A DNA stretch of 64,000 nt from Arcicella sp. (GCA_043769985.1 JAYVIV010000136.1:5802-69801); one strand, 5' to 3'. Positions 3,221 to 21,884 are shown, numbered from the stretch's first letter. The notes: generated by a model not told the origin, from the letters alone. Program-made: numbers and translations.

Positions 3221-6200
3221 GTTTCTTCCAAAAATTACGACTAAAAATTCTTTCAAATTTCCACCCTTTCGCTCGTAAACCCGCAGGAATGTAGGCGAAT
3301 GTTTCCTTCGGAGAAAGGTGTTCGTAATATAAATCATCATCCGTTAAGATTAATGATTCATAGTTTTTACTGTTTTTTACAGTTATGTCTGCAAATGGTA
3401 ACTCTTTGATATACGAGCCATGGTCAGACTGTGCGCCCCAGTGTTCCCCACCGACCACTCCATTAATTAATTGCTCCTTCAATAACCACTCTGCCTGATA
3501 ATTTTCTGAGCGGTGGGCTTGTGGTTTATAATTTCCTTCTGATACTTTTAGGGCATATTCCAAATAGCTTTTCAGTAATCTTGGACCTTCATTTTGTGCT
3601 TCTTCCACTCGTAATTGATTCGGCAAAATACTACTGATAATATATATTTTTTCTCTGGCACGGGTAATGGCCACATTCAAGCGATTTTCACCTCCTTGTC
3701 CATTCAAAGAACCAAATTGCATTGCCATTTTGCCTTTTGCATCGGGAGCATATCCGATGGAAAAGATGATAATATCTCGTTCATCGCCTTGCACATTTTC
3801 TATGTTTTTTACGAACAGCCCCCTAACCCCCGAAGGGGGAACTTGCTCGTCCGATTTGGACGTTAATTTTGTGTCGAAAGTTCCCCCTTCGGGGGTTAGG
3901 GGGCTGAGTAAATCTTGAATCAAACCTTGTTGTTTGAAGTTAAAAGTAACAATTCCGATTGATTTTTCGGGAGATGTTTGATGAATATTTTTCACTAAAT
4001 CAATGACCCTTTCTGCCTCAATTTGATTGGTGCTATTTTCCCAAATTCCATCCACTTTAAAATACTGAATAGCGGGTTTTTGAAGATTAATCTCTTGAAA
4101 ATCAGGCAATAACGATAAAGTATTTTTATAAAAATATTGATTAGAAAAATCAATTAGGTCTAAAGATTTGCTTCGATAATGACCTCGCAGTTGCGTTTGC
4201 GGTAAATATTGACAAGCTAAATCCAAGAGCGAATCTACTTCTAATTCAGGGTTGTCATCCGCATCGTTTTCAAACCTAACTCTGTACAAATCACTGGGTT
4301 GCAATTGTTTGGAATCACCCGCAATGACCACTTGCTTACCCCTGTATAATGCAGGAATACCTTGTTCAGCAAAACATTGTGAGGCTTCATCGAAAATGAC
4401 CAAATCGAAAATACCCGAAGCGTCGGTAGCCCCCTGCCCCCCTTCAAGGGGGCAAAGTGGAAAAATCGCAGAAACTGTTTCGGGAGAAGCCAACCAACAG
4501 GGAACAAGTTTAAACAATTCTTCCGAATATTCAGTAATTAATTTCCGAACTGACCACAATTTACGTTTTTTACCAACTTGATGCTTCAAATCACGATAAG
4601 TTATGGTATTTTGAAGTCGATTTTTTTCTAAATTTTGATACGTTAATTCTCGGAGTTTCAACAATAAAATCTCTTGACTTAGGGTTTGTTTTTTCTGAAC
4701 TGAATCCTGCAAATCAATTTCTAACTGATTCATTTTCAAAGAACTAACGCTTCTTAGAATTGGATATTTTTCTTCAATATTTTCAATCCAAGCTAATTTT
4801 AAACTGTTCATAAAATGGTCGGTGGGGACACTGACCATTACGGACAGAAGTCTTTTTTCAGGTAAAAACAATTCAATCATCGACCATTCTGTACGACTAA
4901 AAGATGCCCTCAATGAATCAGATTCTTGCATTAAATCGAAGTTTTCTTTTAGGTAAGAATTAATGTTTGATAAATCTCCCGTGGCTTGTCTGGGCGACCC
5001 CGTGTTCACAAGTCCACACGCAAGAATATCTATTTGATTTTTAGATAAATAATTATTCCAAACTGCCTGAATATCAATTAATTGCTGTGATTGTTGAATT
5101 AAGAAATTGATTTGTTTTTGGAAATCGTTCCATGTTGTTGTTCCCGTTGTTGTCTGTGTCTTCACAGACAACCCCATAGTCGTCTGTGAAGACACAGACA
5201 ACAACGGGTATGACGGCAATATTTTCGTCAACGGTTTCCATATTTTATTCGCTTTTTCGGCTTGATATAATTGTTGAAAATTACGTTCAAACCAACGATA
5301 TCCTTTACGTAGCCATATTGGATCTTCATTCCTATCCAATTCGCCAAATAAAAATCCCCATTCATTCCACCATTTTTCTAAGCCAATACGATTTTGGATT
5401 CTTTGTTGTAATTTCTGTAAATCTTCCAACGAAAGACTTAAGCCATTCGCCCTCGTAACATTCTGAATATTAGCTTTTTGATTTGAAAAAAAACGCCAAA
5501 CTAATCCACCAATAACATTCGACTTTGTGTCAATTGCTTCGTTTAACTTTGACAGAAAAGGTAATAAATGGGAACTTGGTAAGGTAATTTCAATCCCTTG
5601 ACCGGCAAAAAATTGAGCCACTTGTGCTTCTAATTCACCAATTTTTGTAGTATTGAGTTTAATCTTTTCTTGAATATTTCTACTAAAAACCTGATAAATT
5701 TTCTCATTTCCAATTAATGATAACAAATTCTGAAAACGTTCTTTTTCCCCTGAAATCTTTTCCAATTCTTGAAAATTTAAGATGTTTTTCAGAATTTCTG
5801 ATGATTCATTTTCAAGGTTTTGTACAAAATCGTGTACTTCTTGAACAACTTTCAAAATCTGTGAAATTTCTGAATATTGACGGTTTTGAAAAGAGAGGCG
5901 AGATTGCCAAAAAGAAGCCTCTGTGACTTGTCTGGGGGATTCCGTGTTCACCAATCCACTTTTTAATTTATTTTCATAAACGCAATATCTTTCAAATTTC
6001 TTCGAAAAATCATTTATCTCATTGAATTTGAAGTGTTTATAATCTTCTTTCAAATTCAAAAAAGGTTGATTTGGCGAACTTGTTAAGTATAATTCTTTTA
6101 CGGAAACACCGCATACTGAAACATCAAAAAGGGCATCTTTGAACTCTTGTAAAGTATCAGAAATTTTATCAATTTGACGGCTTTCTTGGGTAAAATTTCG

Positions 6201-7502
6201 TTCCAAAAAAATTGCATCAAGGCTCTGATTTTTCTTTTGATAATCTTCGATTTGTTCAATTTGATTCAAAATCTGAGCGTACAAAGTTTTACGGTCATTC
6301 TTGAAGTCATGTACATTGCCTACAAACGGTCGCATTCCTGCTCGTGTGAGGCGTTCCTGCACAACATCGAGGGCGGCTCGTTTTTGAGAAACGACCAAAA
6401 CTTTTTTACCACGAGCCGTAAAATCCGCAATAAGATTACAAATTAATTGAGATTTCCCCGTCCCAGGCGGTCCTTGAACTACCATCGAAGCTCCCGCTTT
6501 TATTTGTTGCAAAGCCAATTCTTGAGAAGCATCAACGGCAAAAGGGGTTAGGAGGTTTTCTTCACGGGGTTTAGGGATTGGGGGATTTAGGGGTTGGGGA
6601 TTGGGGAAAAGGGACTCTAATCCCTCTTTCTCAAATTTTCTATCAATATTTTCTAAGTTTTCTACGCTGTCTTCCGTCTTCTTTTCTCCTTTTTCCTTAC
6701 TGCTTTCCTCCAATAACTCCTCATAATCAGGCACTAAAAATGATCCTGCCTGTGGAAAAATTCCTAAGACTGCTTGGGGGTATAATTTTAATTCTCCATT
6801 GTTTTCAGAAAGGTCTAAATCTGATTTTAATTGTTTCTCAAAATGTTGTAACCCATTGACAAAAATCTCTTTATTGAAATCAATTTTTAAAGAAGAATCT
6901 TTCAAAAATTCGTATAATTGTGTTCTAAATTCAAGCGAATCTTTTGAAAAATCTTCAAAACTATGTTCTAAAAATTCATCCGAAATTTGGAGTTGATTGA
7001 AGTGTGAATAAGCTAAAAGGAAACTACGATTGAGAATAGCCCCCTGACCCCCAGAGGGGGAAGTAAAAACGTACTCGGAAACTCCCCCTCTGGGGGTTAG
7101 GGTGGCTATCGTTACAGGAAAAAATAATAAAGGACAACGCACAACCGTTCCGTCCGAAAACTTGCCTTTAATGATGGGATAACCCACATATAAATCTTCC
7201 GAACCACGTTCCTCTTCAATAAATTTTTCAGTCCTTGAAATCTTGCGTAAATACTTACTTACTTGATTTACTCGCTCATATCGTGGGTCGTGAATTTCAC
7301 AAAGAGAAATAGCATTTTTTTGAGCGATTAATTGCTCTATGATGTTAAATGAAGGTTTATTTTGTAAAAAATCAAGCTCGTGAATATCTAAAAACTGTTC
7401 AGCAGAGAGGTTTAATAACAACAAAGATTTATTCCTTGAGGTTAGATTGGTTAGTCTTTTTTGATATGATTTTAGGATTTTTTGTAATTTATTCTCTTGC
7501 AT
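3213..7502 (-). CDS. DUF4011 / superfamily-1 (UPF1/Dna2-like) helicase carrying multiple in-frame repeat insertions
   Basis: QGPPGTGKS, FDEASQ, GDSKQLQP, HYRS, ENVQGDERD, RLNVAITRAR. ORF is open from 7538; likely start MQENKL at 7502. Confidence 0.85.
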   Translation of the reverse strand: MQENKLQKILKSYQKRLTNLTSRNKSLLLLNLSAEQFLDIHELDFLQNKPSFNIIEQLIAQKNAISLCEIHDPRYERVNQVSKYLRKISRTEKFIEEERGSEDLYVGYPIIKGKFSDGTVVRCPLLFFPVTIATLTPRGGVSEYVFTSPSGGQGAILNRSFLLAYSHFNQLQISDEFLEHSFEDFSKDSLEFRTQLYEFLKDSSLKIDFNKEIFVNGLQHFEKQLKSDLDLSENNGELKLYPQAVLGIFPQAGSFLVPDYEELLEESSKEKGEKKTEDSVENLENIDRKFEKEGLESLFPNPQPLNPPIPKPREENLLTPFAVDASQELALQQIKAGASMVVQGPPGTGKSQLICNLIADFTARGKKVLVVSQKRAALDVVQERLTRAGMRPFVGNVHDFKNDRKTLYAQILNQIEQIEDYQKKNQSLDAIFLERNFTQESRQIDKISDTLQEFKDALFDVSVCGVSVKELYLTSSPNQPFLNLKEDYKHFKFNEINDFSKKFERYCVYENKLKSGLVNTESPRQVTEASFWQSRLSFQNRQYSEISQILKVVQEVHDFVQNLENESSEILKNILNFQELEKISGEKERFQNLLSLIGNEKIYQVFSRNIQEKIKLNTTKIGELEAQVAQFFAGQGIEITLPSSHLLPFLSKLNEAIDTKSNVIGGLVWRFFSNQKANIQNVTRANGLSLSLEDLQKLQQRIQNRIGLEKWWNEWGFLFGELDRNEDPIWLRKGYRWFERNFQQLYQAEKANKIWKPLTKILPSYPLLSVSSQTTMGLSVKTQTTTGTTTWNDFQKQINFLIQQSQQLIDIQAVWNNYLSKNQIDILACGLVNTGSPRQATGDLSNINSYLKENFDLMQESDSLRASFSRTEWSMIELFLPEKRLLSVMVSVPTDHFMNSLKLAWIENIEEKYPILRSVSSLKMNQLEIDLQDSVQKKQTLSQEILLLKLRELTYQNLEKNRLQNTITYRDLKHQVGKKRKLWSVRKLITEYSEELFKLVPCWLASPETVSAIFPLCPLEGGQGATDASGIFDLVIFDEASQCFAEQGIPALYRGKQVVIAGDSKQLQPSDLYRVRFENDADDNPELEVDSLLDLACQYLPQTQLRGHYRSKSLDLIDFSNQYFYKNTLSLLPDFQEINLQKPAIQYFKVDGIWENSTNQIEAERVIDLVKNIHQTSPEKSIGIVTFNFKQQGLIQDLLSPLTPEGGTFDTKLTSKSDEQVPPSGVRGLFVKNIENVQGDERDIIIFSIGYAPDAKGKMAMQFGSLNGQGGENRLNVAITRAREKIYIISSILPNQLRVEEAQNEGPRLLKSYLEYALKVSEGNYKPQAHRSENYQAEWLLKEQLINGVVGGEHWGAQSDHGSYIKELPFADITVKNSKNYESLILTDDDLYYEHLSPKETFAYIPAGLRAKGWKFERIFSRNFWKKPV
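3816..3906. repeat. C/G-rich inverted-repeat element (family B) inside the helicase CDS
   Basis: 28-bp perfect IR CAGCCCCCTAACCCCCGAAGGGGGAACT with a 35-bp spacer. Confidence 0.9.
5143..5208. repeat. REP-doublet-like element (family C, GTG-RRGA-CAC hairpin) inside the helicase CDS
   Basis: 27-bp perfect IR CCCGTTGTTGTCTGTGTCTTCACAGAC with a 12-bp spacer. Confidence 0.9.
7039..7106. repeat. Family B element inside the helicase CDS
   Basis: GCCCCCTGACCCCCAGAGGGGGAAGT...ACTCCCCCTCTGGGGGTTAGGGTGGC. Confidence 0.85.
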
Positions 7503-7642
7503 TTTTTTTGTTAATATCTGCGAAAGTAATAACAGCAAAGTCGCTATGACGCTAAGATAAGTATGACTATGGTAATTATTTCATTCACTTAAATTTTTTA
7601 AAATCTTAGCATCCTTGTAGCTTTGTAGTATCACAATTTATT

Positions 7643-9076
7643 TCACAAGCCTAAACTCTTATTTACATACCACTGAATTTCGTCGTTATCACCATAATAT
7701 AGCCAATTCCAAGCAATTACGGCACTTTCTACTGAGAAATAAAAGATTGTCAGTACCGCAAAAAGCGTTAAATTTAAAGCTAAATATTTCAATAAATCAG
7801 GCTTATCCCTCTTAATAAAACTTAATCCCGTTGCCAGTAATAAAACGATTGGATAAAAAACGTGTGCTAATAATCTTGTGTGCATGAAAGCCCAGTCGTT
7901 ATACTTTATCAACCCCGTAAACATAATAGCAAAACTTCCCAAAAGCAAAATTAAACAAGTGGCTCGAAAAATTTTTTCCCAAAAAATTATAGTTCCATAT
8001 TGTTGCCTCCAAGTAAAAAACAACAACATAAATCCTTGTCTAATTAATAAAGCTAATCCAATGATAATCAGCATTGTAGGCAATATTCCTAAGATAAAAA
8101 AGATACTTCCAATATATCGAAAACCTGAATAGTTTCCGAATGTTAAATTATTTTCAAAATATTGGTGTTTATACCAAAAAGTTCCGTACATCAACAAAGG
8201 TGCTGAATGAATACTTGGATTTCGAGAGGATAAATTGGGGTCTTTGATAAGCGTGAAAATATTAATATTGTAATAACTCTGAGGTCCAATGTAAAAAATG
8301 GCATTGCTCGCCAGTGGAAAAATATCAAGATTATGCACAAAAATTTTATGTTGCTGCCATCTATAATTTTCTACGAATTTATAGGTGCCTGAAAACCCAA
8401 TTATCGCTCCACACAAAATCATCGTAGAGGTCATTTTCCAGAATGGCTTTCGGAAGTTTACTAAGAAAATTATTAACAAAACTACTGGTATAAAAGGAAT
8501 AAAAGTAGATTTCGTTAAAAGAGCTAACCCTGCTGATAGTGAGAGAATTACAACATTTTTTAGCGTCTGGTCTCTCAAATATTTAATGAGATTATAAAAA
8601 AACCACGTCCCCATCAAGACAGAAAGTGTATCGTTTGAAACGAATAATGAATAGATGAGATATGTTCCCAAAAAGGTGGCTAAAAGGAAACTTAAATTCC
8701 GAATCTCCACATCTTTAATCGTCATTTTTACTAATTTTGACATTAACCACAAGTTCAAACAAGACGTGATTAACCCATAAAATTCAACCATTTTCAATCC
8801 TCCAATTACATAAAAAGGAAGAGATGTCAAATAGTATAAGGGAGGATGACAGGCTAAAAAAAGTTCATTTGTACGGGGCAAACGATGGTTTTTAATTATG
8901 AAATCCAATACTTCATAGTGTGCATCAGCACCTTGAGGATTCATGACAATAAATACTAAGACCCGAAGTATAATTCCAAGCCAAAGGATTTTATTCAGTG
9001 AAGTCTCTTTACTGAAAAAGTTAGCTATTTCATTAAGCATTTTTGATATTTTTAGATTAAAGACGCTCAAATTCAA
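7643..9076 (-). CDS. Polytopic membrane glycosyltransferase (GT-C, ArnT/PMT-like)
   Basis: Many TM segments, DAHY...HPPLYY, NDTLS, LALLTKST; divergent from a GT2 gene. Confidence 0.6.
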   Translation of the reverse strand: MNLSVFNLKISKMLNEIANFFSKETSLNKILWLGIILRVLVFIVMNPQGADAHYEVLDFIIKNHRLPRTNELFLACHPPLYYLTSLPFYVIGGLKMVEFYGLITSCLNLWLMSKLVKMTIKDVEIRNLSFLLATFLGTYLIYSLFVSNDTLSVLMGTWFFYNLIKYLRDQTLKNVVILSLSAGLALLTKSTFIPFIPVVLLIIFLVNFRKPFWKMTSTMILCGAIIGFSGTYKFVENYRWQQHKIFVHNLDIFPLASNAIFYIGPQSYYNINIFTLIKDPNLSSRNPSIHSAPLLMYGTFWYKHQYFENNLTFGNYSGFRYIGSIFFILGILPTMLIIIGLALLIRQGFMLLFFTWRQQYGTIIFWEKIFRATCLILLLGSFAIMFTGLIKYNDWAFMHTRLLAHVFYPIVLLLATGLSFIKRDKPDLLKYLALNLTLFAVLTIFYFSVESAVIAWNWLYYGDNDEIQWYVNKSLGL

Positions 9077-9180
9077 TGGAATTCAGAATCTTTTCGTTAG
9101 GAAACTACTCTGGTATTCATTTTGTAAAGAACTTTGTATGAATTACCTTAAATAAAACCTTTAAAAAATCCGTTCCATAG

Positions 9181-9915
9181 ATGTATAAAAACAAAAAAGT
9201 TATCGTTGTAATGCCTGCGTATAAGGCTGCCCTCACGCTCGAAAAGACTTATCGAGAAATTCCATTCGACCTTGTTGATGATGTAATTTTGGTTGACGAC
9301 CATAGTCCCGACAACACTTCTGAGGTTGCTAAATCTCTGGGAATCAAGCATATTATTCGTCACGATAAAAATAAAGGCTACGGCGGAAATCAGAAAACTT
9401 GTTATACCAAAGCCCTTGAATTGGGTGCTGATATTGTAATTATGGTTCATCCCGATTATCAATATACTCCCCTCCTATTGCCCGCCATGATTACGATTAT
9501 TGGCAATGAGCTTTATCCAGTTGTTTTTGGTTCAAGAATTTTAGGAAAAGGAGCTTTGAAAGGTGGAATGCCCATGTATAAATATATCGCAAACCGTTTT
9601 TTAACGCTTTTTCAAAATATTATGCTATCCCAAAAACTCTCTGAATATCACACAGGCTACCGAGCATTTTCAAGAGAAGTTTTAGAAAAAGTACCGTTTC
9701 ATAAATGTGATGATGATTTTGTGTTCGATAATGAAATGATTGCCCAAATTTTTTGGCAAGGCTTTGAAATTGGGGAAGTTACGTGTCCGACCAAATATTT
9801 TGATGAAGCATCTTCCATCAATTTTGCCCGTAGTTCAAAGTATGGTTTAGGTGTTTTGCGTGTTTCGATGCGTTATCGTTTGGCGAAATGGGGAATTAGC
9901 TGGAGATTGTTATAG
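9181..9915 (+). CDS. Glycosyltransferase family 2 (DPM1-like)
   Basis: VVMPAY, VDDHSPD, GYGGNQK, HPDYQY, FVFDNEM. Confidence 0.9.
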   Translation: MYKNKKVIVVMPAYKAALTLEKTYREIPFDLVDDVILVDDHSPDNTSEVAKSLGIKHIIRHDKNKGYGGNQKTCYTKALELGADIVIMVHPDYQYTPLLLPAMITIIGNELYPVVFGSRILGKGALKGGMPMYKYIANRFLTLFQNIMLSQKLSEYHTGYRAFSREVLEKVPFHKCDDDFVFDNEMIAQIFWQGFEIGEVTCPTKYFDEASSINFARSSKYGLGVLRVSMRYRLAKWGISWRLL

Positions 9916-10050
9916 AGGTTTTTGTAATTAATTTTCAATATTCAATGTTCAATTAGAAATGTTCAAGTCTTTCAGTGTAATCACTTGAACATTCGTCATT
10001 GAAATTTGAACACGGAACGCCGCCCGATTGAAAATTAAACCTTTTTTAAC

Positions 10051-10695: not shown

Positions 10696-10762
10696 TAATC
10701 AATAAGCAAGCAAAACTTGTTTATCAATATGAATGTTATTACTTTTGAAAAAACAATATACA

Positions 10763-10936
10763 ATGGACAAAGTAAATAGATATTATGAATTAGAAACTAA
10801 ACCCGTTATTGGTGCAGCGGGTGGTGCTTCTCTCGGCGGGATATTTGGAGGAACAGGAATTATTGTAGGTGGACTTTTAGGTTTTTTCACTGTTCTGGGA
10901 ATAGTGTTGTATCTCTTTTTTTACAAGAAAAACTAA
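10763..10936 (+). CDS. Small glycine-rich membrane protein, hypothetical
   Basis: GAAGGASLGGIFGGTGIIVGGLLG glycine-zipper-like stretch followed by one TM helix. Confidence 0.4.
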   Translation: MDKVNRYYELETKPVIGAAGGASLGGIFGGTGIIVGGLLGFFTVLGIVLYLFFYKKN

Positions 10937-10941
10937 TTTTC

Positions 10942-11250: not shown

Positions 11251-11314
11251 CAAAATTAAAAGACCTATCAAATGACCAAAATCTGATGGGTCTTTTTAGT
11301 ATACTTTTTAAAAT

Positions 11315-13159
11315 ATGACCCCAATCGAAACCTTTCAATCCAGAAAAGAAAATTTCCAAACCCTTACTGATCAATTCCAAAAACAGTATAATCAATGGGC
11401 AATCTTTAGAGCAATTTTGTTTTTAATAATTGCCTTGATTAGTTATTTAACTTATCAGTATTCAAGCGGTGATTATGTAATTCCAGTTGTAATTATTGGT
11501 ATTTCAATATTTCTATTTTCAGTAAATAAACACTTGAAAATCAAATATTTACGTGATAAAAATAAAATTTTATCTATGATTAATGAAGATGAAATTAAGC
11601 GTTTGGATAATGTTTTTACCAGAGCAGAAACAGGCGAACAATTTGCTGAAACGAATCATTTTTATGCTTCTGATTTAGATATTTTCGGGAAACAATCGCT
11701 CTTCAAACTGCTCAATCGCACGCATACTTATACGGGAGGGGCTACTTTGGCAAATTGGTTGAAATTTCCCTCTCAGAAAGCTGAAATTCTCAGTCGGCAA
11801 GAATCTATTGAAGAATTATCCGCTAAAATTGATTTCAGACAAGATTTAGAAGCCTCCGCCATGTTGATTGAAGAAGTTGCTGAACCTACGCAAAAACTAA
11901 TTTCTTGGAGTGAAGAGCCTGAAAATGAGACGATTAAAAAGCCAATTTTTCAATACGGGAAGTTCCTGCCATACCTCACCGTTTCCTTGATTTTGGCTTG
12001 GGCTTTTGGGTATATTCCTATCGGTTATCCACTGTTAATGTTGATTTTTCATGGGTTTATTCTGAAACAGATTTATGATACCGTTAGCCATGCCCTCGAA
12101 CAAACCATTCGCCTTTCTGCCACTTTGAAAGCATACGCTAATCTATCGGAACTAATTGTTAATGAGACATTTACGCATCAAAAACTTAGAGATTTACAAA
12201 CCGAACTTTCAGAGGCAAGTCCTGCGATTAGAGGTTTAGAAGACATTTTGAATAAGTTAGGAAACCGAGCCAACCCGATTTTTGCTTTAATTGCAGGTGT
12301 GCCTTTGTTGTGGGATATTCAATTTTTTATCAAATTAGAAACCTGGAAAAAAAAGCATCAAAAAAATCTTCCTAAATGGTTATGTGCCATTGCTGAATTT
12401 GAAACCTTAAACAGTTTTGCGGGACTAAAATTCGCCAATCCAGAATTTGTAAAACCTGAGATTTCAGAAGATTCTATTTTACTAAAAACCAAAGGATTAG
12501 CCCATCCAATGATTCGTAGAACGAAACGAATTGCTAATAACATCCAGCTCGTTGGCGAAGGGAAAACTATCATAATTACAGGCTCAAATATGTCGGGCAA
12601 AAGTACCTTTCAGCGGACGGTTGCGGTGAATATTGTGTTGGCTTTGGCGGGTTCAGTCGTGTGTGCAGAGGCGTTTGCGTGTTCATGTATGCAAGTGTTT
12701 ACGAGTATGCGTACGCAAGATTCTTTGGAGGAAGATACATCGTCATTTTATGCAGAATTGAAGCGATTAAAGACGTTGATTTTGGCGGTTAATAGTGGGC
12801 AATCTATGGAAACCCCACCCAAGTCGAATGCGACCCCAGCCGCCCTCAAAGGGAGGGCTTTTCTACCCATTTTTTACTTTTTAGATGAGATTTTGAAGGG
12901 GACAAATTCCAAAGACCGTCATGAAGGGGCGAAGGCTTTGATGTTACAATTACACCGAACAACGGCATCTGGTTTTATCTCAACGCATGATGTAGAATTG
13001 GGTGATGAGTTTGCTCATCAAGGCTTTGTGGAGAATTATAGCTTCTCTTCGGAGGTTGTGAATGATGATTTAGTGTTTGATTATAAACTACGTTCGGGCG
13101 TTTGCCATAGTTTTAATGCGAGTATGCTGATGAAAGGGATTGGGATTGAGATGGGGTAA
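11315..13159 (+). CDS. MutS-family ATPase (domain V with N-terminal TM helices; not the mismatch-repair MutS1)
   Basis: ITGSNMSGKSTF, SMRTQDSL, SSFYAEL, LDEILKGTNS, STHD. Confidence 0.85.
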   Translation: MTPIETFQSRKENFQTLTDQFQKQYNQWAIFRAILFLIIALISYLTYQYSSGDYVIPVVIIGISIFLFSVNKHLKIKYLRDKNKILSMINEDEIKRLDNVFTRAETGEQFAETNHFYASDLDIFGKQSLFKLLNRTHTYTGGATLANWLKFPSQKAEILSRQESIEELSAKIDFRQDLEASAMLIEEVAEPTQKLISWSEEPENETIKKPIFQYGKFLPYLTVSLILAWAFGYIPIGYPLLMLIFHGFILKQIYDTVSHALEQTIRLSATLKAYANLSELIVNETFTHQKLRDLQTELSEASPAIRGLEDILNKLGNRANPIFALIAGVPLLWDIQFFIKLETWKKKHQKNLPKWLCAIAEFETLNSFAGLKFANPEFVKPEISEDSILLKTKGLAHPMIRRTKRIANNIQLVGEGKTIIITGSNMSGKSTFQRTVAVNIVLALAGSVVCAEAFACSCMQVFTSMRTQDSLEEDTSSFYAELKRLKTLILAVNSGQSMETPPKSNATPAALKGRAFLPIFYFLDEILKGTNSKDRHEGAKALMLQLHRTTASGFISTHDVELGDEFAHQGFVENYSFSSEVVNDDLVFDYKLRSGVCHSFNASMLMKGIGIEMG

Positions 13160-13171: not shown

Positions 13172-13266
13172 AATCAGTCTGAATTGGGATTCGTCAGATT
13201 AAAGGATTTTTCGTCAAACATTAATCCTTAAAATCCATTAATCCCACGAATCCCAATTCAGACAGG
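13172..13266. repeat. Family A element, copy 2
   Basis: GTCTGAATTGGGATTCGT...ACGAATCCCAATTCAGAC between convergent genes. Confidence 0.85.
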
Positions 13267-16200: not shown

Positions 16201-16927
16201 CATTTTGATGATAAATAATGAGTTCCGTCTTGGGCTTTTCGTATTTCAATATCGTCATTTCAGTTGCCGTCATAGGTTTTGTGATGGAAGTTTTACTAAC
16301 ATCAGAAATGGCCAATACCCCAACGTTATCTCCTGTTAATGAAGGCTTTACGTTTTCTATCTGAGGTGTTGGATAAAAATGTCCGTTCAATAATGAAACT
16401 TCTTCTTTGTCTTTTTTATGCAAAATCATTTCACCCCCATATACAGGCACACCTTTATACATCTGTTTCATCCGTAAGTGAGTCGTTTTGATTTCGTCCG
16501 TTTCGCTGTTTGAAATATTCAATTCAGCCTCTGGATTGACGAGTTTTAAATAAGGCTTCACGGCTTCCAAATAATTGTAGGCTGAAGCCGCCACCCCTGA
16601 CATTCGAGCGTTACGGACAGAGCTTTTTTTGATGCTTGCGATATTGGTTGGAATTCCCTCAATCATCGAAGGCATTCCGTTTTCATCCATTGTAACTTTC
16701 AAACCATCCTTTTTAGAAATCAGATTCATATAAGTCTGATTATCAGTAGGTTTTGTCAAATATTTTGGACGAGCAATGGTATTTTGAAACGCTGAGTTAT
16801 CCACAATGTTATCCACATTTTCTTGGGGGATAGACACATCAGAACGCTTGACGGTTTTGAATTTATTTTGTGTAAATCCAATCATGGAAATACATAAAAG
16901 GGAGGAAATAAGGAATAGTTTTTTCAT
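13283..16927 (-). CDS. Secreted M4 (thermolysin-like) metallopeptidase with propeller/Ig domains and T9SS C-terminal sorting domain
   Basis: NAFWNG, HEMTH, GAINESLAD, GVHINSG; FTP/PepSY-like prodomain; C-terminal VSPNP...KKVTKE. Confidence 0.9.
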   Translation of the reverse strand: MKKLFLISSLLCISMIGFTQNKFKTVKRSDVSIPQENVDNIVDNSAFQNTIARPKYLTKPTDNQTYMNLISKKDGLKVTMDENGMPSMIEGIPTNIASIKKSSVRNARMSGVAASAYNYLEAVKPYLKLVNPEAELNISNSETDEIKTTHLRMKQMYKGVPVYGGEMILHKKDKEEVSLLNGHFYPTPQIENVKPSLTGDNVGVLAISDVSKTSITKPMTATEMTILKYEKPKTELIIYHQNEKSDGERLAYHVTVRPNFLERWVYVIDANSGEILDKYNYTCTLDGVATATARDLNGFNRTINTYQSGSSYNLIDASRGMFIRGNKVVKADDPQRVIWTIDATNSKVSEDLTIKQVSSTNNSWNNATAISAHYNAGLAYDYYEKKHGRKSLNGSDGTIISIINITDENGKGFDNAFWNGEYMGYGNGGTAFKPLAGGLDVAGHEMTHGVIEKTANLEYKGQSGAINESLADCFGALVEAKTGNDLWKLGEDVVVARFYPTGALRDLSNPNNGGRSLNDNGYQPTNMNQYYSGSEDNYGVHINSGVPNNAFYRFATASGMNLTKAEKIYYRALAFYLTRTSKFLDLRRAVIQSATDLKASAGVTDADINAAKAAFDAVGITDGNAPTPTPSNPTTPIPPAPKADVPVNIGTEGLLSYDPVTKTLYKSSTKGEADANSFVELAKNIVIEHKPTVPDDGTFAYFVPADGFIKRVNLVGTPKVENVSSSGVWRNAAVSKDGKKLAALRTLGTNVATTDKQIAVFNLSAGTSRVYTLYNPTYTQGVNTGQVQNADAIEWDHQSENLVYDAFNTIKNATGGESEFWDVGFINVWNASKNDYGTGQIDKLFTSLDEGENIGNPSFSKNSTNIIAFDFFIEQDDLNYIIGVNTERTDGLDYIYENNTLGYPEYSRTDDLLLYNYLDAKNILNTYQITMEKSRIKSIKNSQKYLIGQSAYAVWYTVGTRALPTKQNQTISMTKIPDKLVGDPAFDVTVSASSSLAVGLSIVYGPANISNRRITLTGTAGRVKVNAFQDGNSSFYNVARADSFCVNPLKPTISVVKKTDNNGDFWEYTSSSATGNVWYRDNAILESLRGSQVIQVVSGLKFNVQVVTMDGCASVQSDARQDVALTKPLSSEPTLEASITVSPNPTSDEIRIVVPKNLRIESVKLNAMSGSQVLEKQGDKSNAMTLNIHNLSRGNYVLQIMTNEGIVAKKVTKE

Positions 16928-17038
16928 TAGAAATTTATTTTAAACCGCTAAGACACCAAGTCGCTAAGTCAAATAGTGTATCTATCTTAGTGTCTCCGTG
17001 TCTTAGCAGTAATTAGCAATCTTTTTTATTTTTGAATC

Positions 17039-17437
17039 CTACTTCATCAACGCCATAAATGTATCATAAAAAATCTTAACTGAGTCAACAGGCAGCTTTT
17101 TATCTCCCCATTGAACTTTATGAGCAAACTTTTTTCGTTCCGAAAACTGAACCGTATAAGACATATTGCCAGATTCGCCCGAAGGTTTTTCATTCAACTT
17201 CAAAGCCTCAATTTGCTTAAAAAAGTCCTTAGTTTTCGATTTTGAAATGGTTTTTACCACCATAGCCGAATCTTCGTTACTGGCTTTATGAAGCAGTTGC
17301 CCATCAGCTTTGAGTGTATATTCGTGCCATACGCCCGTAACACCTCCACCCGAAGCCACCGTAATTTGCTGATTTTCAGGAACAGATTTACAACTAAAAA
17401 TGAATGTTGCGAGCAAGAAAGTAATGTATTTTTTCAT
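17039..17437 (-). CDS. Hypothetical lipoprotein
   Basis: MKKYITFLLATFIFSC lipobox, then SGGGVTG. Confidence 0.65.
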   Translation of the reverse strand: MKKYITFLLATFIFSCKSVPENQQITVASGGGVTGVWHEYTLKADGQLLHKASNEDSAMVVKTISKSKTKDFFKQIEALKLNEKPSGESGNMSYTVQFSERKKFAHKVQWGDKKLPVDSVKIFYDTFMALMK

Positions 17438-17600
17438 AATGGTAAGATGTTGTAACCGCAAAGACGGAAGGACACAAAATAGTGCTTCTTACGTCTTTGT
17501 AGCAAGTTTATTAATAGTAAACGTTTTTTGTGCCTTCCCGTTTTGCAGTAAAATTAATTAATTGTAAATTTTTGCGTCTTCCCGTCCTTGCGGTTAAACA

Positions 17601-18782
17601 TTACAAACCCAACTCACTAACCGCCAACCATGACATCAATCCCGCTCCGATTTCCAAGGCACTTTCATCAATATCAAACGTTGGGGTATGCACGCCCGAA
17701 ATAATTCCTCTTGCCTCATTACGAGTTCCTAACCGATAAAAACATGAATCGACGTGGTGCGTATAATAGGCAAAATCCTCAGCGGCCAGCCAAATATCTA
17801 AATCAAGTACATTGTCCTGACCCATAAATTCAATGGCTGCCCCTTTCATTCTGCGAGTCAATTCTGGTTCATTTTTCAAGAATGGATAACCTTTCTGAAT
17901 AAAAACCTCACAAACGCCACCCATTGATTCAGCGATGCCTTCCGCCATTTTTTTGATACGAGCCAACGCATCGGCACGCCATTCTTCGTCCATTGCACGG
18001 AAAGTTCCTTCTACATACACCTCATTCGGAATCACGTTGGTAGCACCGTTGGCAATCACTTTTCCAAAACTCAACACCGAAGGATAACGTGGATTACGAT
18101 TTCGACTGATAATTTGTTGTAAAGCCACAATAATATGCGAAGTAATCAACACTGGGTCGATGCCTAATTCGGGCATGGCACCGTGTCCGCCTTTGCCTTT
18201 TACGGTAAAATAAATTTCATCGGCACTTGCCATATACATTCCTTCACGGAAACCAATTTTACCAACTGGAATATTCGGAGCAACGTGCTGACCCAACATT
18301 TTATGGGGCGTTGGGTTCAACAGAGCACCTTCCGCAATCATGACAGACGCACCACCAGGGGCTTTTTCCTCGGCAGGTTGGAAAACCAATTTCACCGTTC
18401 CCTCAAATTCATGCCGTAAGTTATATAAAATCTTGGACACACCCAACAACGAAGCCGTGTGAACATCATGTCCACAAGCGTGCATAACTCCTTGATTAAG
18501 AGACTTATACGGCACATCGTTCGCCTCCACAATTGGCAAGGCATCCATATCCGCCCGCAAAGCCACCACTTTTGAAGCTGGATTTCTGCCTTCAATCGTG
18601 GCAACCAAACCCGTATTGGCAATGGACGTTGGCGTAATTCCAATTTCTTTCAAACGTTCGGCAACGTATTTCTGGGTATTGTATTCCTGATAAGACAACT
18701 CAGGATTTTGATGTAAATGTCTGCGGTTAGCCACAAATTCGCCTGCATGGGCGTTGGCTAATTGTTTTATTTTTTCTTTCAT
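17601..18782 (-). CDS. M20D family amidohydrolase
   Basis: RRHLHQNPELS, LRADMDALP, MHACGHDVH, FQPAEE, AEDF. Confidence 0.92.
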   Translation of the reverse strand: MKEKIKQLANAHAGEFVANRRHLHQNPELSYQEYNTQKYVAERLKEIGITPTSIANTGLVATIEGRNPASKVVALRADMDALPIVEANDVPYKSLNQGVMHACGHDVHTASLLGVSKILYNLRHEFEGTVKLVFQPAEEKAPGGASVMIAEGALLNPTPHKMLGQHVAPNIPVGKIGFREGMYMASADEIYFTVKGKGGHGAMPELGIDPVLITSHIIVALQQIISRNRNPRYPSVLSFGKVIANGATNVIPNEVYVEGTFRAMDEEWRADALARIKKMAEGIAESMGGVCEVFIQKGYPFLKNEPELTRRMKGAAIEFMGQDNVLDLDIWLAAEDFAYYTHHVDSCFYRLGTRNEARGIISGVHTPTFDIDESALEIGAGLMSWLAVSELGL

Positions 18783-18812
18783 TTATTGGTTAAAAAACAA
18801 TACAGAGAGGTT

Positions 18813-19115
18813 CTATACTACTGGCAAATACACAAGCTTCCCCTCACTAAAATACTTTACCTTTGTACCATTATCTAATGTTTTAGCTATCATTTTCGCT
18901 AAAAATATTCCTTTTTTATCAAGCTCATCTATTATTTGACTGGATTTTTTTCTTTCAATATCTTCCATTAAAATAATTGGCAAGTATTGTTTGTGCCAAC
19001 CTTTGATGTCTTCTAATAAATTTGATGAAAGATTTAATTCGTCTATATCAAAATCAAAGGTAAACTCATTCTTTAAAAATGAATTCACATTAGCAGAAAG
19101 TATTAAGTACATCAT
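18813..19115 (-). CDS. Hypothetical AT-rich orphan protein
   Basis: 100-aa ORF with no recognised motif. Confidence 0.5.
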   Translation of the reverse strand: MMYLILSANVNSFLKNEFTFDFDIDELNLSSNLLEDIKGWHKQYLPIILMEDIERKKSSQIIDELDKKGIFLAKMIAKTLDNGTKVKYFSEGKLVYLPVV

Positions 19116-19153
19116 TAGACTTGAAATGAATATGGTTACATTACTAAATTTTT

Positions 19154-19499
19154 CTAAGCCATCATAGCCCCCAAAATACTCTCTCTTTTTTGAGATGAAA
19201 TATTCAGATTTTGAAGACTTATTTCTGTTTTATTTCTTGTTTCTATTTTATCAAAAAGTCGTTGGAGTTTCACCCAAAGTTCGGCTTCAATACCTAATAC
19301 TTCTTCTAATTTGATGGCTAATTCAATGCTTATTTTCTTCTTTTCTTTTAATAAACCATTTAAGAAAGGTTGGCTAATGGATAATTTATCCGCTAAATCG
19401 GTTTGTTTAAGCCCCCCTTTCTTTGATTTCGTTACGCAATAATTCACCTGAGTGCATTACCACAGACGGAATGTGATTTTGGTTTAATCTTCTTTTCAT
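19154..19499 (-). pseudogene. higA: HigA-family (XRE-HTH) antitoxin split by a +1 frameshift; no higB toxin adjacent
   Basis: MKRRLNQNHIPSVVMHSGELLRNEIKERG in one frame, then LKQTDLADKL...AELWVKLQ in another; break at the C6 run 19412-19417. Confidence 0.75.
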
Positions 19500-19529
19500 G
19501 TTGGTAGAATTTGAATGTCCATTAAAATT

Positions 19530-19626
19530 GTCTGAATTTGGATTCGTCAGATTAAGGGATTTGTGGATTTTTCGTCGAATTGTAATCCAAAAAATCCATT
19601 AATCCTACGAATCCAAGTTCAGACAA
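19530..19626. repeat. Family A element, copy 3
   Basis: GTCTGAATTTGGATTCGTCAGATT...ACGAATCCAAGTTCAGAC between xisI and higA. Confidence 0.85.
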
Positions 19627-19633
19627 CAGCAAT

Positions 19634-19972
19634 TTACGCCATAGCAAACCCCGACAATTCCCTCATATAAGGTGCATGAAAACCCAACACAAGGTCTTCT
19701 TTCGGAACGCCAGCGTCTAATAATAATTGAGCTACGGGTATATCTGTAATATCATGTTGTACCCAAATTTTATCATTTCGTATATCAAAATGAAAAACGC
19801 AATAATGCACCCTTTTACGGTTTTCAAAACCCACTCGCACTAACTGATAGCTATCTCTGAACGTATCCACAATTATCTCATTTTCTACGTCTGGGAGATT
19901 TACAGGCGTTATTTTAGCGTACTTCTCTAAAATATTTGTGATAATATTTCGGTAATTTTCTACTTTATCCAT
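19634..19972 (-). CDS. xisI: XisI family protein
   Basis: DSYQLVRVGF, HFDIRNDKIWVQHD, GVPKEDLVLGFHAP. Confidence 0.9.
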   Translation of the reverse strand: MDKVENYRNIITNILEKYAKITPVNLPDVENEIIVDTFRDSYQLVRVGFENRKRVHYCVFHFDIRNDKIWVQHDITDIPVAQLLLDAGVPKEDLVLGFHAPYMRELSGFAMA

Positions 19973-20373
19973 TTTACAACAGTGTTTAAGTCTGGATTAA
20001 CAACAATAATTTTCATGTTTATTTCTTTGATAACCATCTGAGGAAAAGGTAGTTCAAAAACCTCTTCATACACGTTATCGGTTATGCCCACGTACAAAAT
20101 CCTTTCGGGTTCTTTCGTTTTCAAGGCAATTCGATAATCAATAAATTGTCCAACGGCTAAGTGAAAATCATATACTTTTGAAAGACCCGCAAATGTTTTT
20201 ACCTCAATCGCTATTTTCTCTCCTTCTCTCTCGGCAGCTACCAAATTTTCAGCTCCTAAATCTATCTCCATTTCAAAACCCCCAACTTTCACAGGATATG
20301 GGTCGTGGGTTATCTTCCAACCATCGTTAATGAGGGCATTCTTTACAATATTGTGGATTAGGTCTCTTGCCAT
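19960..20373 (-). CDS. xisH: XisH family protein (PD-(D/E)xK fold)
   Basis: MARDLIHNIVKNALINDGWKITHDP, IDLGAE, IAIEVKTF, AVGQF. Confidence 0.9.
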   Translation of the reverse strand: MARDLIHNIVKNALINDGWKITHDPYPVKVGGFEMEIDLGAENLVAAEREGEKIAIEVKTFAGLSKVYDFHLAVGQFIDYRIALKTKEPERILYVGITDNVYEEVFELPFPQMVIKEINMKIIVVNPDLNTVVKWIK

Positions 20374-20396
20374 TATAAATTTGGATTTATTTTTCC

Positions 20397-21884
20397 CTAC
20401 AAATTTAACCACAATTTCAGATTCTCGTTCTTCCCATCCATTATTTCCAAATGAATCTTTCCTTCCTCATTCCACTGCATTTGCAAACCAAAAGCATCCA
20501 ACAACTCGTTGACCATGCTTTCGAGAGGCATATTTCCGTGGATGCAGCCTTTGAAATATTGGGATAATGAACGCCCATAAACTTCTTCACAAACTCGCTG
20601 ATAATCCGTTATCGAATAACCTACGCCCATTTTTCCGAAGCGTTCCCACATCGTTTTCATGACGGTCTCTAAGGATTTTTGATGTCCAAAACGCAAGCGA
20701 ATCATTAAATCCAAAATCAACGCAACAACCGCCCCTTTCTGATAAATTGAAACTCTACGGTGCGGAATGGCTTGCGAATATCCATCCAACCATAAATCAA
20801 AAGAAGATTCTACCAACGACTGAAAAGCCTTGCCATCTTGCTCAAAATGACGTTTCAAGACGGTTTCTAATTCCTTTAAATATTGTTCTTGCGTAAAAAC
20901 ATCCGACTGTACCAAAAATAAATCTCCATAATAAGTCGTAACACCTTCCGCTACAAAACCCGTTGAAAAGTAGTTTTCCTTCGTAAAATCATAAGGCATC
21001 ATCTCAACGGGACGAATTTTACAGATATTCCAAGCATGATACAATTCGTGTGAAGAAACGCCCAAAAGGTCATTATACAATCCATCGCCTTCAGAATCTG
21101 GTCCTAAGACAATCATTGTAGAATTCCGATGTTCTACGCCATGATAGAAGGAAGTCGGTAGAATCCAGTTGATAAAATGGTAATCTTTTTCTGGAAAATC
21201 ACCCATTACTTGAATTTGTTTCTCCGTAAATGCTTGAAAATCAATGAGTAATTTCGTCCAATTGGGCGTATGATTTCCCAAAAACCAAACGTGGAAATCA
21301 ACATTTTCCACTTGGTAGCTTTGATGTTGGAGGTACGGACTGGCGAGAAGAGGGGAATCGACTAAAGCCCCCCAACCCCCAGAGGGTGAGTCAAAAACTA
21401 CATTCAACCTTCCATCCTTGAAAGTACCAAAATTGGACTCGAAAGCTCCCCCTCTGGGGGCGGGGGGGGCTTCTACTTCCAACGCACAAGCCTCATCTAT
21501 ACGCCCTTGTACATAAGGCAAACAGTTTACGAAATTAACGTACATTACCGATTCATCCACGAACGAACTTCCTGCATTTTGGACATTAGCAAAATAAGTG
21601 AATTTGATAACAATCTCCTGTAAATCATTTGTTTGAATTAGCCAACGGTCTTTGGTGAGTTTGTGAAACAAGACCTCCCCCCCCAGCCCCCTCTCCGATA
21701 GAGAGGGGGGGTAAAACACCTCAAATAGTTGAATATTTTTGGCAAAATTTTGGAGTTCATAACGCCCAGGTCGCCACGCAGGGAGTTGCAGTTCGATGCT
21801 GTCGGACTGAATGTTATCAATCACCATTTCTATATTGAGGAAATGGCTTTGAGGGTTTTGGGAAGATATTTTGTATTTTATCAT
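20397..21884 (-). CDS. M61 family (glycyl aminopeptidase-like) metallopeptidase with two in-frame repeat inserts
   Basis: LPAWRPGRY, GVEHRNS, SHELYHAWN, EGVTTYYG. Confidence 0.88.
   Translation of the reverse strand: MIKYKISSQNPQSHFLNIEMVIDNIQSDSIELQLPAWRPGRYELQNFAKNIQLFEVFYPPSLSERGLGGEVLFHKLTKDRWLIQTNDLQEIVIKFTYFANVQNAGSSFVDESVMYVNFVNCLPYVQGRIDEACALEVEAPPAPRGGAFESNFGTFKDGRLNVVFDSPSGGWGALVDSPLLASPYLQHQSYQVENVDFHVWFLGNHTPNWTKLLIDFQAFTEKQIQVMGDFPEKDYHFINWILPTSFYHGVEHRNSTMIVLGPDSEGDGLYNDLLGVSSHELYHAWNICKIRPVEMMPYDFTKENYFSTGFVAEGVTTYYGDLFLVQSDVFTQEQYLKELETVLKRHFEQDGKAFQSLVESSFDLWLDGYSQAIPHRRVSIYQKGAVVALILDLMIRLRFGHQKSLETVMKTMWERFGKMGVGYSITDYQRVCEEVYGRSLSQYFKGCIHGNMPLESMVNELLDAFGLQMQWNEEGKIHLEIMDGKNENLKLWLNL
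21365..21472. repeat. Family B element inside the M61 peptidase CDS
   Basis: AAGCCCCCCAACCCCCAGAGGG...CCCCCTCTGGGGGCGGGGGGGGCTT. Confidence 0.85.

Follow-up and report, generated by a model that had tools for sequence, protein, structure and literature searches.

GC-rich hairpin repeats read in frame as predicted Pro/Gly loops in Arcicella proteins, and a candidate DUF559 nuclease enclosed by the same arms

Rickettsia palindromic elements (RPEs) are short palindromic repeats inserted in frame into many unrelated housekeeping genes and translated as extra peptide segments, with other copies lying between genes; neither a target-site duplication nor a transposase is known for them, and such repeats have been regarded as a peculiarity of Rickettsia (PMC10969869). 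Similar behavior is observed here on a larger scale in Arcicella, a free-living freshwater genus of Bacteroidota rather than an obligate intracellular alphaproteobacterium. The repeats, termed family B, are GC-rich double hairpins in a 36% GC genome, encode Pro/Gly linkers, and are shorter than RPEs (53-183 bp between arm ends). In addition, a nuclease-bearing full-length form exists in Arcicella, whereas none is known for RPEs. The different phylum and base composition make homology between the two unlikely.

REPIN-RAYT systems comprise inverted doublets of arms that are themselves small palindromes, with variable spacers, singlets as remnants, no target-site duplication, and long vertical persistence with a species-specific consensus. 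Family B shares this architecture: 74 doublets were identified, each arm holds a CCCCC-GAW-GGGGG hairpin, and spacers diverge (about 60% identity) while arms are conserved. However, more than half of the copies are intragenic and in frame rather than extragenic, no RAYT is flanked by these arms, and the associated gene encodes a PD-(D/E)xK-fold DUF559 domain instead of a Y1/HUH enzyme.

Vsr-like (EDxHD) homing endonucleases such as I-Bth0305I, and the free-standing endonucleases of fractured genes (PMC3239194, PMC2677866), occur at fixed positions in conserved genes with clean presence or absence among relatives, as the DUF559 domain does here; a survey of PD-(D/E)XK nucleases places VSR, DUF559, and DUF2726 in one clade, which lists a group I intron homing endonuclease (PMC3424549). 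The Arcicella domain, in contrast, has no intron or intein around it and no start or stop codon of its own, is read through as part of the host protein, and is bounded by dispersed hairpin repeats that also exist about 100 times without the nuclease. The ShiLan-type unspliced insertion in actinophage DNA methylases (PMC11855218) likewise has a homing-like distribution and is neither intron nor intein, but its nuclease is an HNH enzyme encoded out of frame with its own GTG and TAA, whereas the DUF559 frame is the host frame; ShiLan has no hairpin-arm family, and no non-autonomous derivatives are described for it. Mobile GC clusters and double-hairpin elements of AT-rich fungal mitochondrial genomes, including translational-bypass byp elements, are short GC-rich hairpins that spread in an AT-rich genome and land inside coding sequences. 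Genic copies in Arcicella, however, are stop-free with lengths biased modulo 3, consistent with a net insertion that preserves the frame, which points to ordinary translation rather than ribosomal bypass.

The window analyzed is a 64,000-nt stretch of a 5.16-Mb Arcicella metagenome-assembled genome (here G000; other G numbers denote the genomes compared, and C numbers denote contigs). A preliminary description had reported that these C/G-rich elements occur only inside coding sequences of this window, in three genes, and this observation is confirmed for the window itself. The sequence CCCCCTAACCCCC, with up to one mismatch, occurs 5 times, against 0.02 expected from shuffles, and an inverted-repeat scan recovers three head-to-head pairs that fold as single-stranded DNA into long hairpins. 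The three doublets and at least two single arms lie in frame in a helicase and an M61 peptidase, and neither an nhmmer profile of the arm nor a regular expression finds an intergenic copy in the 64 kb. Some qualifications apply. The helicase single arm matches the regular expression but not the profile, and the peptidase single arm belongs to a sister type, B2 (CCCCC-AG-CCCCCTCTCC-loop-GAGAGGGGG), with 85 arms in the genome. The segment in the third gene, a MutS-like ORF, is only a degenerate look-alike, possibly a decayed arm, which gave no profile hit and a weak fold and could not be shown to belong to the family. An Rfam search of the window returned no known RNA family.

Table 1. Positions and in-frame readings of the repeats and associated genes (window coordinates unless a contig is given)
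Feature	Position	Strand	Arms and sequence	In-frame reading or host	Fold z
Family-B doublet 1	3816..3906	-	3816-3844 / 3878-3906, 29 nt, 100% complementary (CAGCCCCCTAACCCCCGAAGGGGGAACTT); 33-nt spacer	SPLTPEGGTFDTKLTSKSDEQVPPSGVRGL in the helicase	-12.1
Helicase single arm	4412..4455 (regular-expression match 4429-4455)	-	GCCCCCTGCCCCCCTTCAAGGGGGC plus nested mini-hairpin CCCGAAGCGTCGGTAGC, encoding ATDAS	CPLEGGQGATDASG, just before the helicase DEAS (Walker B) motif	
Family-B doublet 2	7036..7106	-	7042-7061 / 7083-7102, 95% complementary; short spacer	TLTPRGGVSEYVFTSPSGGQG near the helicase N-terminus	-7.1
Family-B doublet 3	21365..21472	-	21368-21390 / 21446-21468, 87% complementary; 55-nt spacer	APPAPRGGAFESNFGTFKDGRLNVVFDSPSGGWGA in the M61 peptidase	-5.4
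B2 single arm	21673..21712	-	CCCCCCCC-AG-CCCCCTCTCC-GATA-GAGAGGGGGGG	PPSLSERGLGGEV in the M61 peptidase	
Degenerate C/G-rich segment	12812..12860	+	TPPKSNATPAALKGRAF	MutS-like ORF	-1.5
Superfamily-1 helicase (AAA_11/AAA_12, DUF4011), 1441 aa	3213..7538	-		TLTPRGGVSEYVFTSPSGGQG, LCPLEGGQGATDASG and SPLTPEGGTFDTKLTSKSDEQVPPSGVRGL	
M61 family metallopeptidase, 495 aa	20397..21884	-		PPSLSERGLGGEV and APPAPRGGAFES...SPSGGWGA	
DUF559 with family-B arms	C192:6842-7299			MetH	
RAYT-like gene	C253:70280-70624		Flanked by a different repeat (CAGGTGCAGAGCACC...)		
IS200/IS605 tnpA	C78:53817-54179			Next to tnpB	

Genome-wide, the family comprises about 190-200 arms (186 by regular expression and 202 profile hits), grouped as 74 doublets and 38 singles, while the same pattern read backwards, used as a control, gives 0. 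Only 55-60% of these lie in frame inside long ORFs (41 of 74 doublets and 23 of 38 singles), against 63-68% of random positions by the same criterion; the family therefore does not avoid genes but is not restricted to them, and a preference for coding sequence is not supported. Hosts include HemC, AlaRS, a ClpB-like protein, Mfd, UvrA, RecF, MetH, the M61 peptidase, and the helicase. Genic doublet lengths fall in a 28/11/2 distribution over the residues modulo 3, whereas non-genic ones are spread evenly (12/11/10), which indicates selection on translation rather than frame preservation as an intrinsic property of the element. Consistently, 84% of genic left arms and 83% of right arms use the phase that the nuclease cassette uses. 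Within the genus, counts per genome are 126, 42, 38, and 13 in the four richest, 1-6 in eight others, and 0 in the remaining thirteen, including eight of the nine genomes that are at least 99% complete.

Comparison of orthologous sites indicates that the copies are lineage-specific insertions. At doublet 1, the site is short and arm-free in G001, G002, G004, G014, G012, G024, and G006, while G007 has a diverged B copy. At the helicase single arm, G020 has the arm without the ATDAS nest and ten other Arcicella genomes have neither. At doublet 3, nine of ten genus orthologues carry no GC-rich arm and have LPKEYKIACG...NNYYE (G002 has a small GC-rich hairpin at a nearby position in the loop); the net difference is +30 nt against the shortest arm-free orthologues, so native codons are overwritten. 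The empty site of the B2 arm in relatives is TTTTCTTCTCAAGAAGAGGTG, a net difference of +24 nt. Orthologues of AlaRS and UvrA also lack the inserts. In an AlphaFold model of the M61 peptidase, which is of only moderate quality (mean pLDDT 75) and proves little, the inserts fall between beta-strands at mean pLDDT of about 55-71 per 10-residue block.

The preliminary description had interpreted the copies as REPIN-like, non-autonomous elements whose Pro/Gly-rich products are tolerated as loops, with a mobilizing enzyme (RAYT/TnpA-Y1 or other) outside the window. This interpretation is supported in part: the dispersed, non-autonomous, palindromic character, the Pro/Gly-rich readings, and the location of the candidate enzyme outside the window hold, whereas RAYT/Y1 as the mobilizer is not supported. 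Of six PF01797 hits in G000, none lies next to B arms; the flanks of the two strong Y1 genes carry none, the one RAYT-like gene being flanked by an unrelated REP and the other being an IS200/IS605 (Table 1). Moreover, Y1 genes occur in arm-free isolates, while none was found in G007, which has 42 arms. A REPIN proper mobilized in trans by a RAYT is therefore considered very unlikely, despite the similar architecture and the presence of PF01797 genes. A classical MITE of a DDE transposon fits no better: inverted ends are present, but AG...CT is invariant at the ends and the flanking positions are complementary (TAG/CTA, AAG/CTT, CAG/CTG) rather than direct, no target-site duplication (including TA) was found, native bases are overwritten, and no arm pair 0.2-6 kb apart encloses a transposase.

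The only long form encloses DUF559, the alternative partner that had been named for checking beforehand. On contig C192, profile-grade B arms flank an intact DUF559 (Vsr-like PD-(D/E)xK) domain with no start or stop codon of its own, inside a 1439-codon open frame between the two B12-binding domains of methionine synthase (MetH). The match to PF04480 has E = 1.3e-36, with values of 1.3e-36 to 2.9e-36 and 124-127 bits against a cut-off of 20.6 among the hits examined. The closest solved structure is 3HRL, an endonuclease-like protein (E = 7.5e-19), and the conserved DUF559 positions (ADF, E-I/V-DG, H) are kept in all five aligned copies. Pfam finds only DUF559, plus a weak related REase model, between the host domains and no Hint/intein domain; no Rfam intron was found in the window, a scan that did not include C192. 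The insert is present only in G000 and G007, and the net difference is exactly 426 nt in all ten full-length arm-free orthologues aligned. Between G000 and G007, dN/dS is 0.12 over 119 codons at dS of about 1.6, indicating purifying selection on the nuclease, while the arms are 22/24 and 26/31 identical. G007 has a second B-armed cassette between the two CoA-transferase halves, at the very junction where G000 has a compact doublet. Compact doublets match the cassette for about 20 nt inside each arm (BLAST hits to the MetH query run from positions 774-823 and 344-408). Arm type also tracks nuclease clade: the three B-armed nucleases are 60-69% identical to each other but 37-42% identical to the B2-armed ones, B2 arms being the type that flanks the DUF559 domains at C11 and C100. 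In the genus, at least 12 DUF559 hits lie in open frames of 546-1439 codons.

Taken together, the favored explanation, held with moderate confidence, is that family B is the non-autonomous, MITE-like form of a small selfish cassette that behaves like RPEs. In this view, two inverted arms, (W)AG-CCCCC-YNR-CCCCC-GAW-GGGGG-ARYT, each holding its own 5-bp hairpin, enclose an open frame of about 125 codons for the DUF559 nuclease, which would be made as an inserted domain of the host protein with the arms as flexible linkers, (S/A)P(P/L)(T/A)PEGG on one side and APPSGAGG on the other. The compact doublets and single arms would keep only the arms and about 20 nt of subterminal sequence and persist wherever a stop-free segment whose length is a multiple of three is tolerated, namely surface loops, inter-domain linkers, protein termini, and gene junctions. 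It is postulated that the nuclease, as the likely mobilizing enzyme, cuts at or near the hairpin arms or at target sites and that copies are then laid down by break repair or gene conversion, which would account for the lack of target-site duplication, the overwriting of a few native codons, the joint change of the two arms of a doublet, and the near identity of arms while spacers and synonymous sites are saturated. The repeat family, its insertions relative to orthologues, and the arm-flanked DUF559 frame are seen directly in the sequences, whereas nuclease activity, its target or cleavage of empty alleles, and mobilization are inferred from association and co-variation alone, and translation of the inserts is inferred from frame conservation.

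Certain observations fit this model less readily. G000 has only one B-armed DUF559 for about 190 arms, and in G004 (38 arms; 77% complete assembly) only a free-standing 132-codon DUF559 frame was found. Of 33 non-genic doublets, 12 bracket a whole gene junction with unique AT-rich spacers, in which blastn and blastx detected no DUF559 remnant beyond subterminal motifs; in two loci these spacers look homologous to native intergenic DNA of arm-free relatives, which simple unit insertion does not predict. Furthermore, the same loops and junctions carry palindromes of other families in other species, as the RecF loop does in all 18 genomes examined, so part of the pattern could reflect turnover at old palindrome sites rather than new insertion. 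It is possible, although less likely, that the arms spread on their own by template switching at stalled forks, hairpin-directed repair, or gene conversion among dispersed palindromes, with DUF559 genes as a separate selfish layer that homes into existing doublets using the arms as homology. In favor of this alternative, 50 of 74 doublets have matched loop types against about 38% expected, orthologous doublets differ between species in loop type on both arms, a nested mini-hairpin is present on one arm in G015 and symmetrically on both arms in G023, and most Arcicella genomes have palindromes of other families at the same sites; the doublet and cassette at the CoA-transferase junction fit homing as well as deletion. 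However, near-identical arms at about 100 unrelated loci, with widely differing copy numbers among congeners, need a copying process between loci and not only within one palindrome, and both the co-variation of arm type with nuclease clade and the maintenance of the nuclease frame under purifying selection in the arms' reading phase argue against a mere passenger.

A more far-reaching reading, which remains tentative, is that DUF559 nucleases with GC-rich double-hairpin arms are a distinct class of bacterial selfish element, without expression signals of its own, transcribed and translated as an unspliced domain of an essential host protein, whose terminal repeats serve both as DNA recognition or repair structures and as Pro/Gly protein linkers, and which seeds hundreds of translated, RPE-like miniature copies. 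If true, this would give a function to the large DUF559 family and a testable enzyme-based mechanism for in-frame palindromic repeats, a question left open since the RPEs were described; one small protein and a 25-nt hairpin are enough for a first assay. What is new in the present setting is a candidate enzyme physically attached to the repeat. A literature search on DUF559 found no title or abstract describing it as part of a mobile element, and a search on Arcicella repeats found nothing relevant.

Host-selected functions, such as terminators, mRNA stabilizers, invertible segments, or useful protein linkers, appear very unlikely. More than half of the copies sit inside unrelated housekeeping genes, where a terminator would be harmful, close relatives do without the inserts, and no Rfam family matches in the window. 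After in silico inversion, 25 of 41 genic doublets stay open in the host frame, the same as the control frames (27, 23), giving no sign of two-orientation coding, and spacers of 22-46 nt are too short for recombinase synapsis. Flank identities rank the relatives differently from locus to locus. Nevertheless, in 8 gene junctions the arm's GCC CCC TAA supplies the upstream stop codon, the GC hairpin followed by A/T-rich sequence resembles a terminator, and one doublet fuses the two CoA-transferase subunits into one frame. Such inserts lengthen proteins, fuse neighboring genes, replace stop codons, and shift start codons, with consequences for annotation and protein evolution.

The motif CCCCCTAACCCCC, allowing up to 1 mismatch, occurs five times in the window (C136:5802-69801), against 0.02 expected, and a scan for inverted repeats returns three pairs of arms that, as single strands, fold into long hairpins with strongly negative z-scores. 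All three doublets lie in frame within two ORFs, a superfamily-1 helicase and an M61 peptidase, and the encoded peptides are SPLTPEGG...VPPSGVRGL, TLTPRGG...SPSGGQG and APPAPRGG...SPSGGWGA, together with the single arms CPLEGGQG and PPSLSERGLGGEV. Neither a profile of the arm nor a regular expression finds an intergenic copy in the 64 kb, and no Rfam family matches anywhere in the window. The preliminary description, which reported these C/G-rich elements only inside coding sequences, is therefore correct for this window, although one of the segments it listed, in a third gene, is only a weak look-alike.

Coordinates of the repeats, host genes and associated loci (window positions unless a contig, C, is named; G000 is the genome under study, G007 another Arcicella genome, and L numbers are retrieved loci)
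Position	Strand	Feature	Details
3213-7538	-	Superfamily-1 helicase ORF	1441 aa
3816-3906		Family-B doublet in the helicase	Arms 3816-3844 / 3878-3906; 29 nt, 100% complementary; fold z = -12.1
4412-4428		Mini-hairpin CGACCGACGCTTCGG	15 nt; peptide ATDAS; 45 copies in G000
4429-4455		Single arm in the helicase	
5143-5208		Inverted repeat of another family in the helicase ORF	30 nt, 97% complementary, 6 nt apart
7042-7061 / 7083-7102		Arms of a family-B doublet	95% complementary; fold z = -7.1
12812-12860		Weak look-alike	
20397-21884	-	M61 peptidase ORF	495 aa
21368-21390 / 21446-21468		Arms of a family-B doublet	87% complementary; fold z = -5.4
~21400-21440		Columns aligned to loci L003 and L007	Different perfect palindrome in these two relatives
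21673-21712		Single arm of sister type B2	
13177-13263, 19528-19626, 26624-26734, 21893-21972, 49622-49713, 62955-63092		Intergenic palindromes of other families	GATTCGTCAGATTA-type and ACGGATT-type arms
G000 C192:6842-7299		B-armed DUF559 cassette in methionine synthase	Arms 416 nt apart
G000 C78:53817-54179		IS200/IS605 tnpA	Beside a tnpB
G000 C253:70280-70624		RAYT-like Y1 gene	Flanked by AACAGGTGCAGAGCACCGAAATATT
G000 C94:~360-450		Compact doublet at the CoA-transferase junction	
G007 C557 (L216:~800-1300)		DUF559 cassette at the CoA-transferase junction	
G000 C65:12009-12083; loci L068, L071, L077, L078, L095-L107		In-frame palindromic insert in RecF	
G000 C42:2988, C44:13340, C49:32860, C50:8950, C110:2167, C196:6323, C209:7058, C299:16424		Gene junctions in which the arm supplies the upstream stop codon	GCC CCC TAA; protein ends ...AP*
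G000 C50:7359, C81:46283, C209:3217		Gene junctions with the left arm in frame at the C-terminus	

In the whole assembly (5.16 Mb, 302 contigs, 35.8% GC), a regular expression for the arm finds 186 arms and an nhmmer profile finds 202, which group into 74 head-to-head doublets and 38 singles. The repeating unit is (W)AG-CCCCC-YNR-CCCCC-GAW-GGGGG-ARYT, followed by a spacer and then the inverted arm. The terminal AG and CT are invariant in 70-74 of 74 doublets, and the next position outward is complementary rather than a direct repeat, so there is no target-site duplication. Short spacers (22-58 nt) share motifs such as AGCTTTCGAGTCCGA and TCGGACTCGAAAGCT, and their lengths step by 12 nt. When a copy was called genic if a stop-free frame of at least 150 codons spans it with at least 40 codons on each side, 41 of 74 doublets and 23 of 38 singles were genic, compared with 63% of random 80-nt windows and 68% of random 21-nt windows. 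The family thus neither avoids nor prefers genes, and its confinement to coding sequence is a sampling effect of one window.

The genic copies nevertheless bear the mark of translation, as inferred from their reading frames. The distance between the two arm loops, taken mod 3, is distributed 28/11/2 among genic doublets and 12/11/10 among non-genic ones, while 42 of 50 genic left arms are read as P-(D/E/K/R)-G-G and 40 of 48 genic right arms are read as PP(S/L)GxxG. Hosts confirmed by Pfam include porphobilinogen deaminase, AlaRS, a ClpB-type AAA+ protein, Mfd and MetH (methionine synthase), and UvrA and RecF are recognized from their sequence.

Loci retrieved with the M61 peptidase are recorded as Arcicella species and MAGs (Cytophagales/Spirosomataceae). 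Among 25 Arcicella genomes, the arm pattern (forward plus reverse) occurs 126 times in G000, 42 times in G007, 38 times in G004 and 13 times in G015, 1-6 times in eight others, and not at all in the remaining thirteen, including eight of the nine >=99%-complete genomes. The cultured isolate A. aurantiaca DSM 22214 is one example without B arms. The reversed pattern, used as a control, gives 0 everywhere.

Comparison with orthologous sites indicates that the copies are insertions. In the M61 peptidase, nine of the ten genus orthologues compared carry no GC-rich arm in the loop of the doublet (G002 has a small hairpin of another kind there), and eight lack any arm at the single-arm site. The window differs by +24 nt and +30 nt from the shortest arm-free forms, and a few native codons are overwritten rather than simply displaced. 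Two relatives (L003 and L007) carry a different perfect palindrome, ACGTAGGCAGGGTT-caaa-ACCCTGCCTACGT (peptide NVGRVQNPAYVQ), in the same loop where the window has the B doublet. In the helicase, the 100% complementary doublet and the single arm are absent from most congeners; G007 shares a diverged doublet, and G020 shares the single arm without its nested ATDAS mini-hairpin. This mini-hairpin nests inside arms of several families, on one arm in RecF of G015 and symmetrically on both arms in RecF of G023. AlaRS, UvrA and HemC show the same picture, in that the insert is shared with one relative (G007, G020 and G015, respectively) and, at AlaRS and UvrA, is absent from the other relatives compared. 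Neither outcome that had been set beforehand as refuting the preliminary interpretation was found, namely copies that are mostly intergenic genome-wide with no frame bias, or orthologous genes that contain the same segments ancestrally.

With respect to the mobilizing enzyme, no pair of arms 0.2-6 kb apart encloses a transposase, and the Y1/HUH candidates fail. One is an IS200/IS605 tnpA beside a tnpB; the other is a RAYT-like gene flanked on both sides by several copies of an unrelated REP, which represents a separate REPIN-like system in the same genome; and G007 has 42 arms and no Y1 hit. Examination of arm pairs with unusually long spacers instead revealed a locus on C192 at which a left B arm (CCCCCCAACCCCCGAAGGGGG) and a right B arm (CCCCCTTCGGGGGCGGGGGGGG) enclose an intact DUF559 domain (PF04480, E = 1.3e-36). 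This segment lies within a 1439-codon open frame, between the B12-binding_2 and B12-binding domains of methionine synthase, and the domain has no start or stop codon of its own. It matches the solved 'endonuclease-like protein' 3HRL (E = 7.5e-19) and keeps the conserved ADF / E(I/V)DG / H positions.

Across the genus, only G000 and G007 carry this insert. All ten full-length arm-free orthologues that were aligned are exactly 426 nt shorter, the BLAST coordinates give the same difference for every other genome checked that had both flanks listed, and a 16-residue linker occupies the site in them. The MetH site is empty, for example, in G022 and G001. Between G000 and G007, the nuclease frame has dN/dS = 0.12 at dS about 1.6, compared with dN/dS = 0.02 for the flanking MetH codons, whereas the arms are 22/24 and 26/31 identical although synonymous sites are saturated. 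Two further DUF559 domains of G000 lie in frame in long ORFs, one on C11 in a class I aminoacyl-tRNA synthetase and one on C100 in a 1210-codon frame, and both are flanked by the sister arm type B2. A fourth copy (C14) is free-standing with decayed arms. In the genus, at least 12 DUF559 hits lie in open frames of 546-1439 codons.

Three observations connect the cassette with the compact doublets. First, BLAST with the MetH cassette hits compact doublets over the arms plus about 20 nt of subterminal sequence on each side. Second, G007 has a second B-armed DUF559 cassette that joins the two CoA-transferase halves into one open frame, and at the same junction G000 has a compact doublet that likewise bridges the two subunits (...EQRTT-APPKGGINDTKLESKSDEKAPPSGAGGA-IARRI...). 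Third, the three B-armed nucleases are 60-69% identical to one another and 37-42% identical to the B2-armed ones, so arm type follows nuclease clade. The doublets are therefore read here as the non-autonomous form of the cassette, although these data do not distinguish whether a given doublet arose by internal deletion or whether the nuclease frame homed into an existing doublet.

The best-supported account is a DUF559-nuclease cassette with hairpin arms and its miniature derivatives. Mobilization by the nuclease is inferred from physical linkage, co-variation, purifying selection and presence/absence rather than demonstrated. The interpretation offered in the preliminary description is partly supported: it is right in kind, in proposing a non-autonomous, tolerated repeat whose enzyme lies elsewhere, but neither a RAYT as that enzyme nor a preference for coding sequence was borne out.

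In function, the family is closest to the Rickettsia palindromic elements, which a 2024 review still treats as the exceptional case of in-frame MITE-like repeats, with no enzyme (PMC10969869). In architecture it is closest to REPINs, but the defining RAYT association fails. The nuclease belongs to the clade listed as VSR/DUF559/DUF2726 in the PD-(D/E)XK survey, together with a group I intron homing endonuclease (PMC3424549). Vsr-like homing endonucleases are established (PMC3239194, PMC2677866), but those sit in introns or are free-standing. An unspliced, in-frame-open homing insertion has been described in phage methylases (ShiLan, PMC11855218); its HNH gene, however, is out of frame and it has no repeat family. 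A full-text literature search for DUF559 returned 25 papers, none of whose titles or abstracts describes a mobile cassette, and a search on Arcicella repeats found nothing.

Some findings do not fit a simple insertion model. Orthologous doublets keep their arms (80-96% identity) while spacers fall to about 60%, and the loop type differs between species on both arms at once; within the genome, 50 of 74 doublets have matched loops, against about 38% expected, which points to arm-to-arm correction. In addition, twelve of 33 non-genic doublets bracket an entire gene junction. In eight junctions the arm supplies the stop codon of the upstream gene, in three others the left arm is read in frame at the C-terminus, and the right arm lies at or within the first codons of the next gene, which starts within or just after it. 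The AT-rich spacers of these doublets are unique, show no DUF559 remnant, and at two loci align with native intergenic DNA of arm-free relatives.

Other Arcicella species carry palindromes of other families at the same places. These facts together suggest break-repair or conversion processes acting on long-lived palindrome sites, and they form the basis of the main rival to the cassette account. In RecF, all 18 Arcicella genomes examined have an in-frame palindromic insert at the same position, in the loop between YMMIEGxF and LITISLQRGQKK. The arms belong to at least five different families, comprising TTCGATG, GAGTTGTG, GATTTCC and GGGATTGG heptamer arms, family B in G000, and a decayed B-like copy in G021 and G014. 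Within the window, six intergenic palindromes of other families have the same arm-spacer-inverted-arm layout, and a further inverted repeat of another family lies inside the same helicase ORF that hosts family-B copies.
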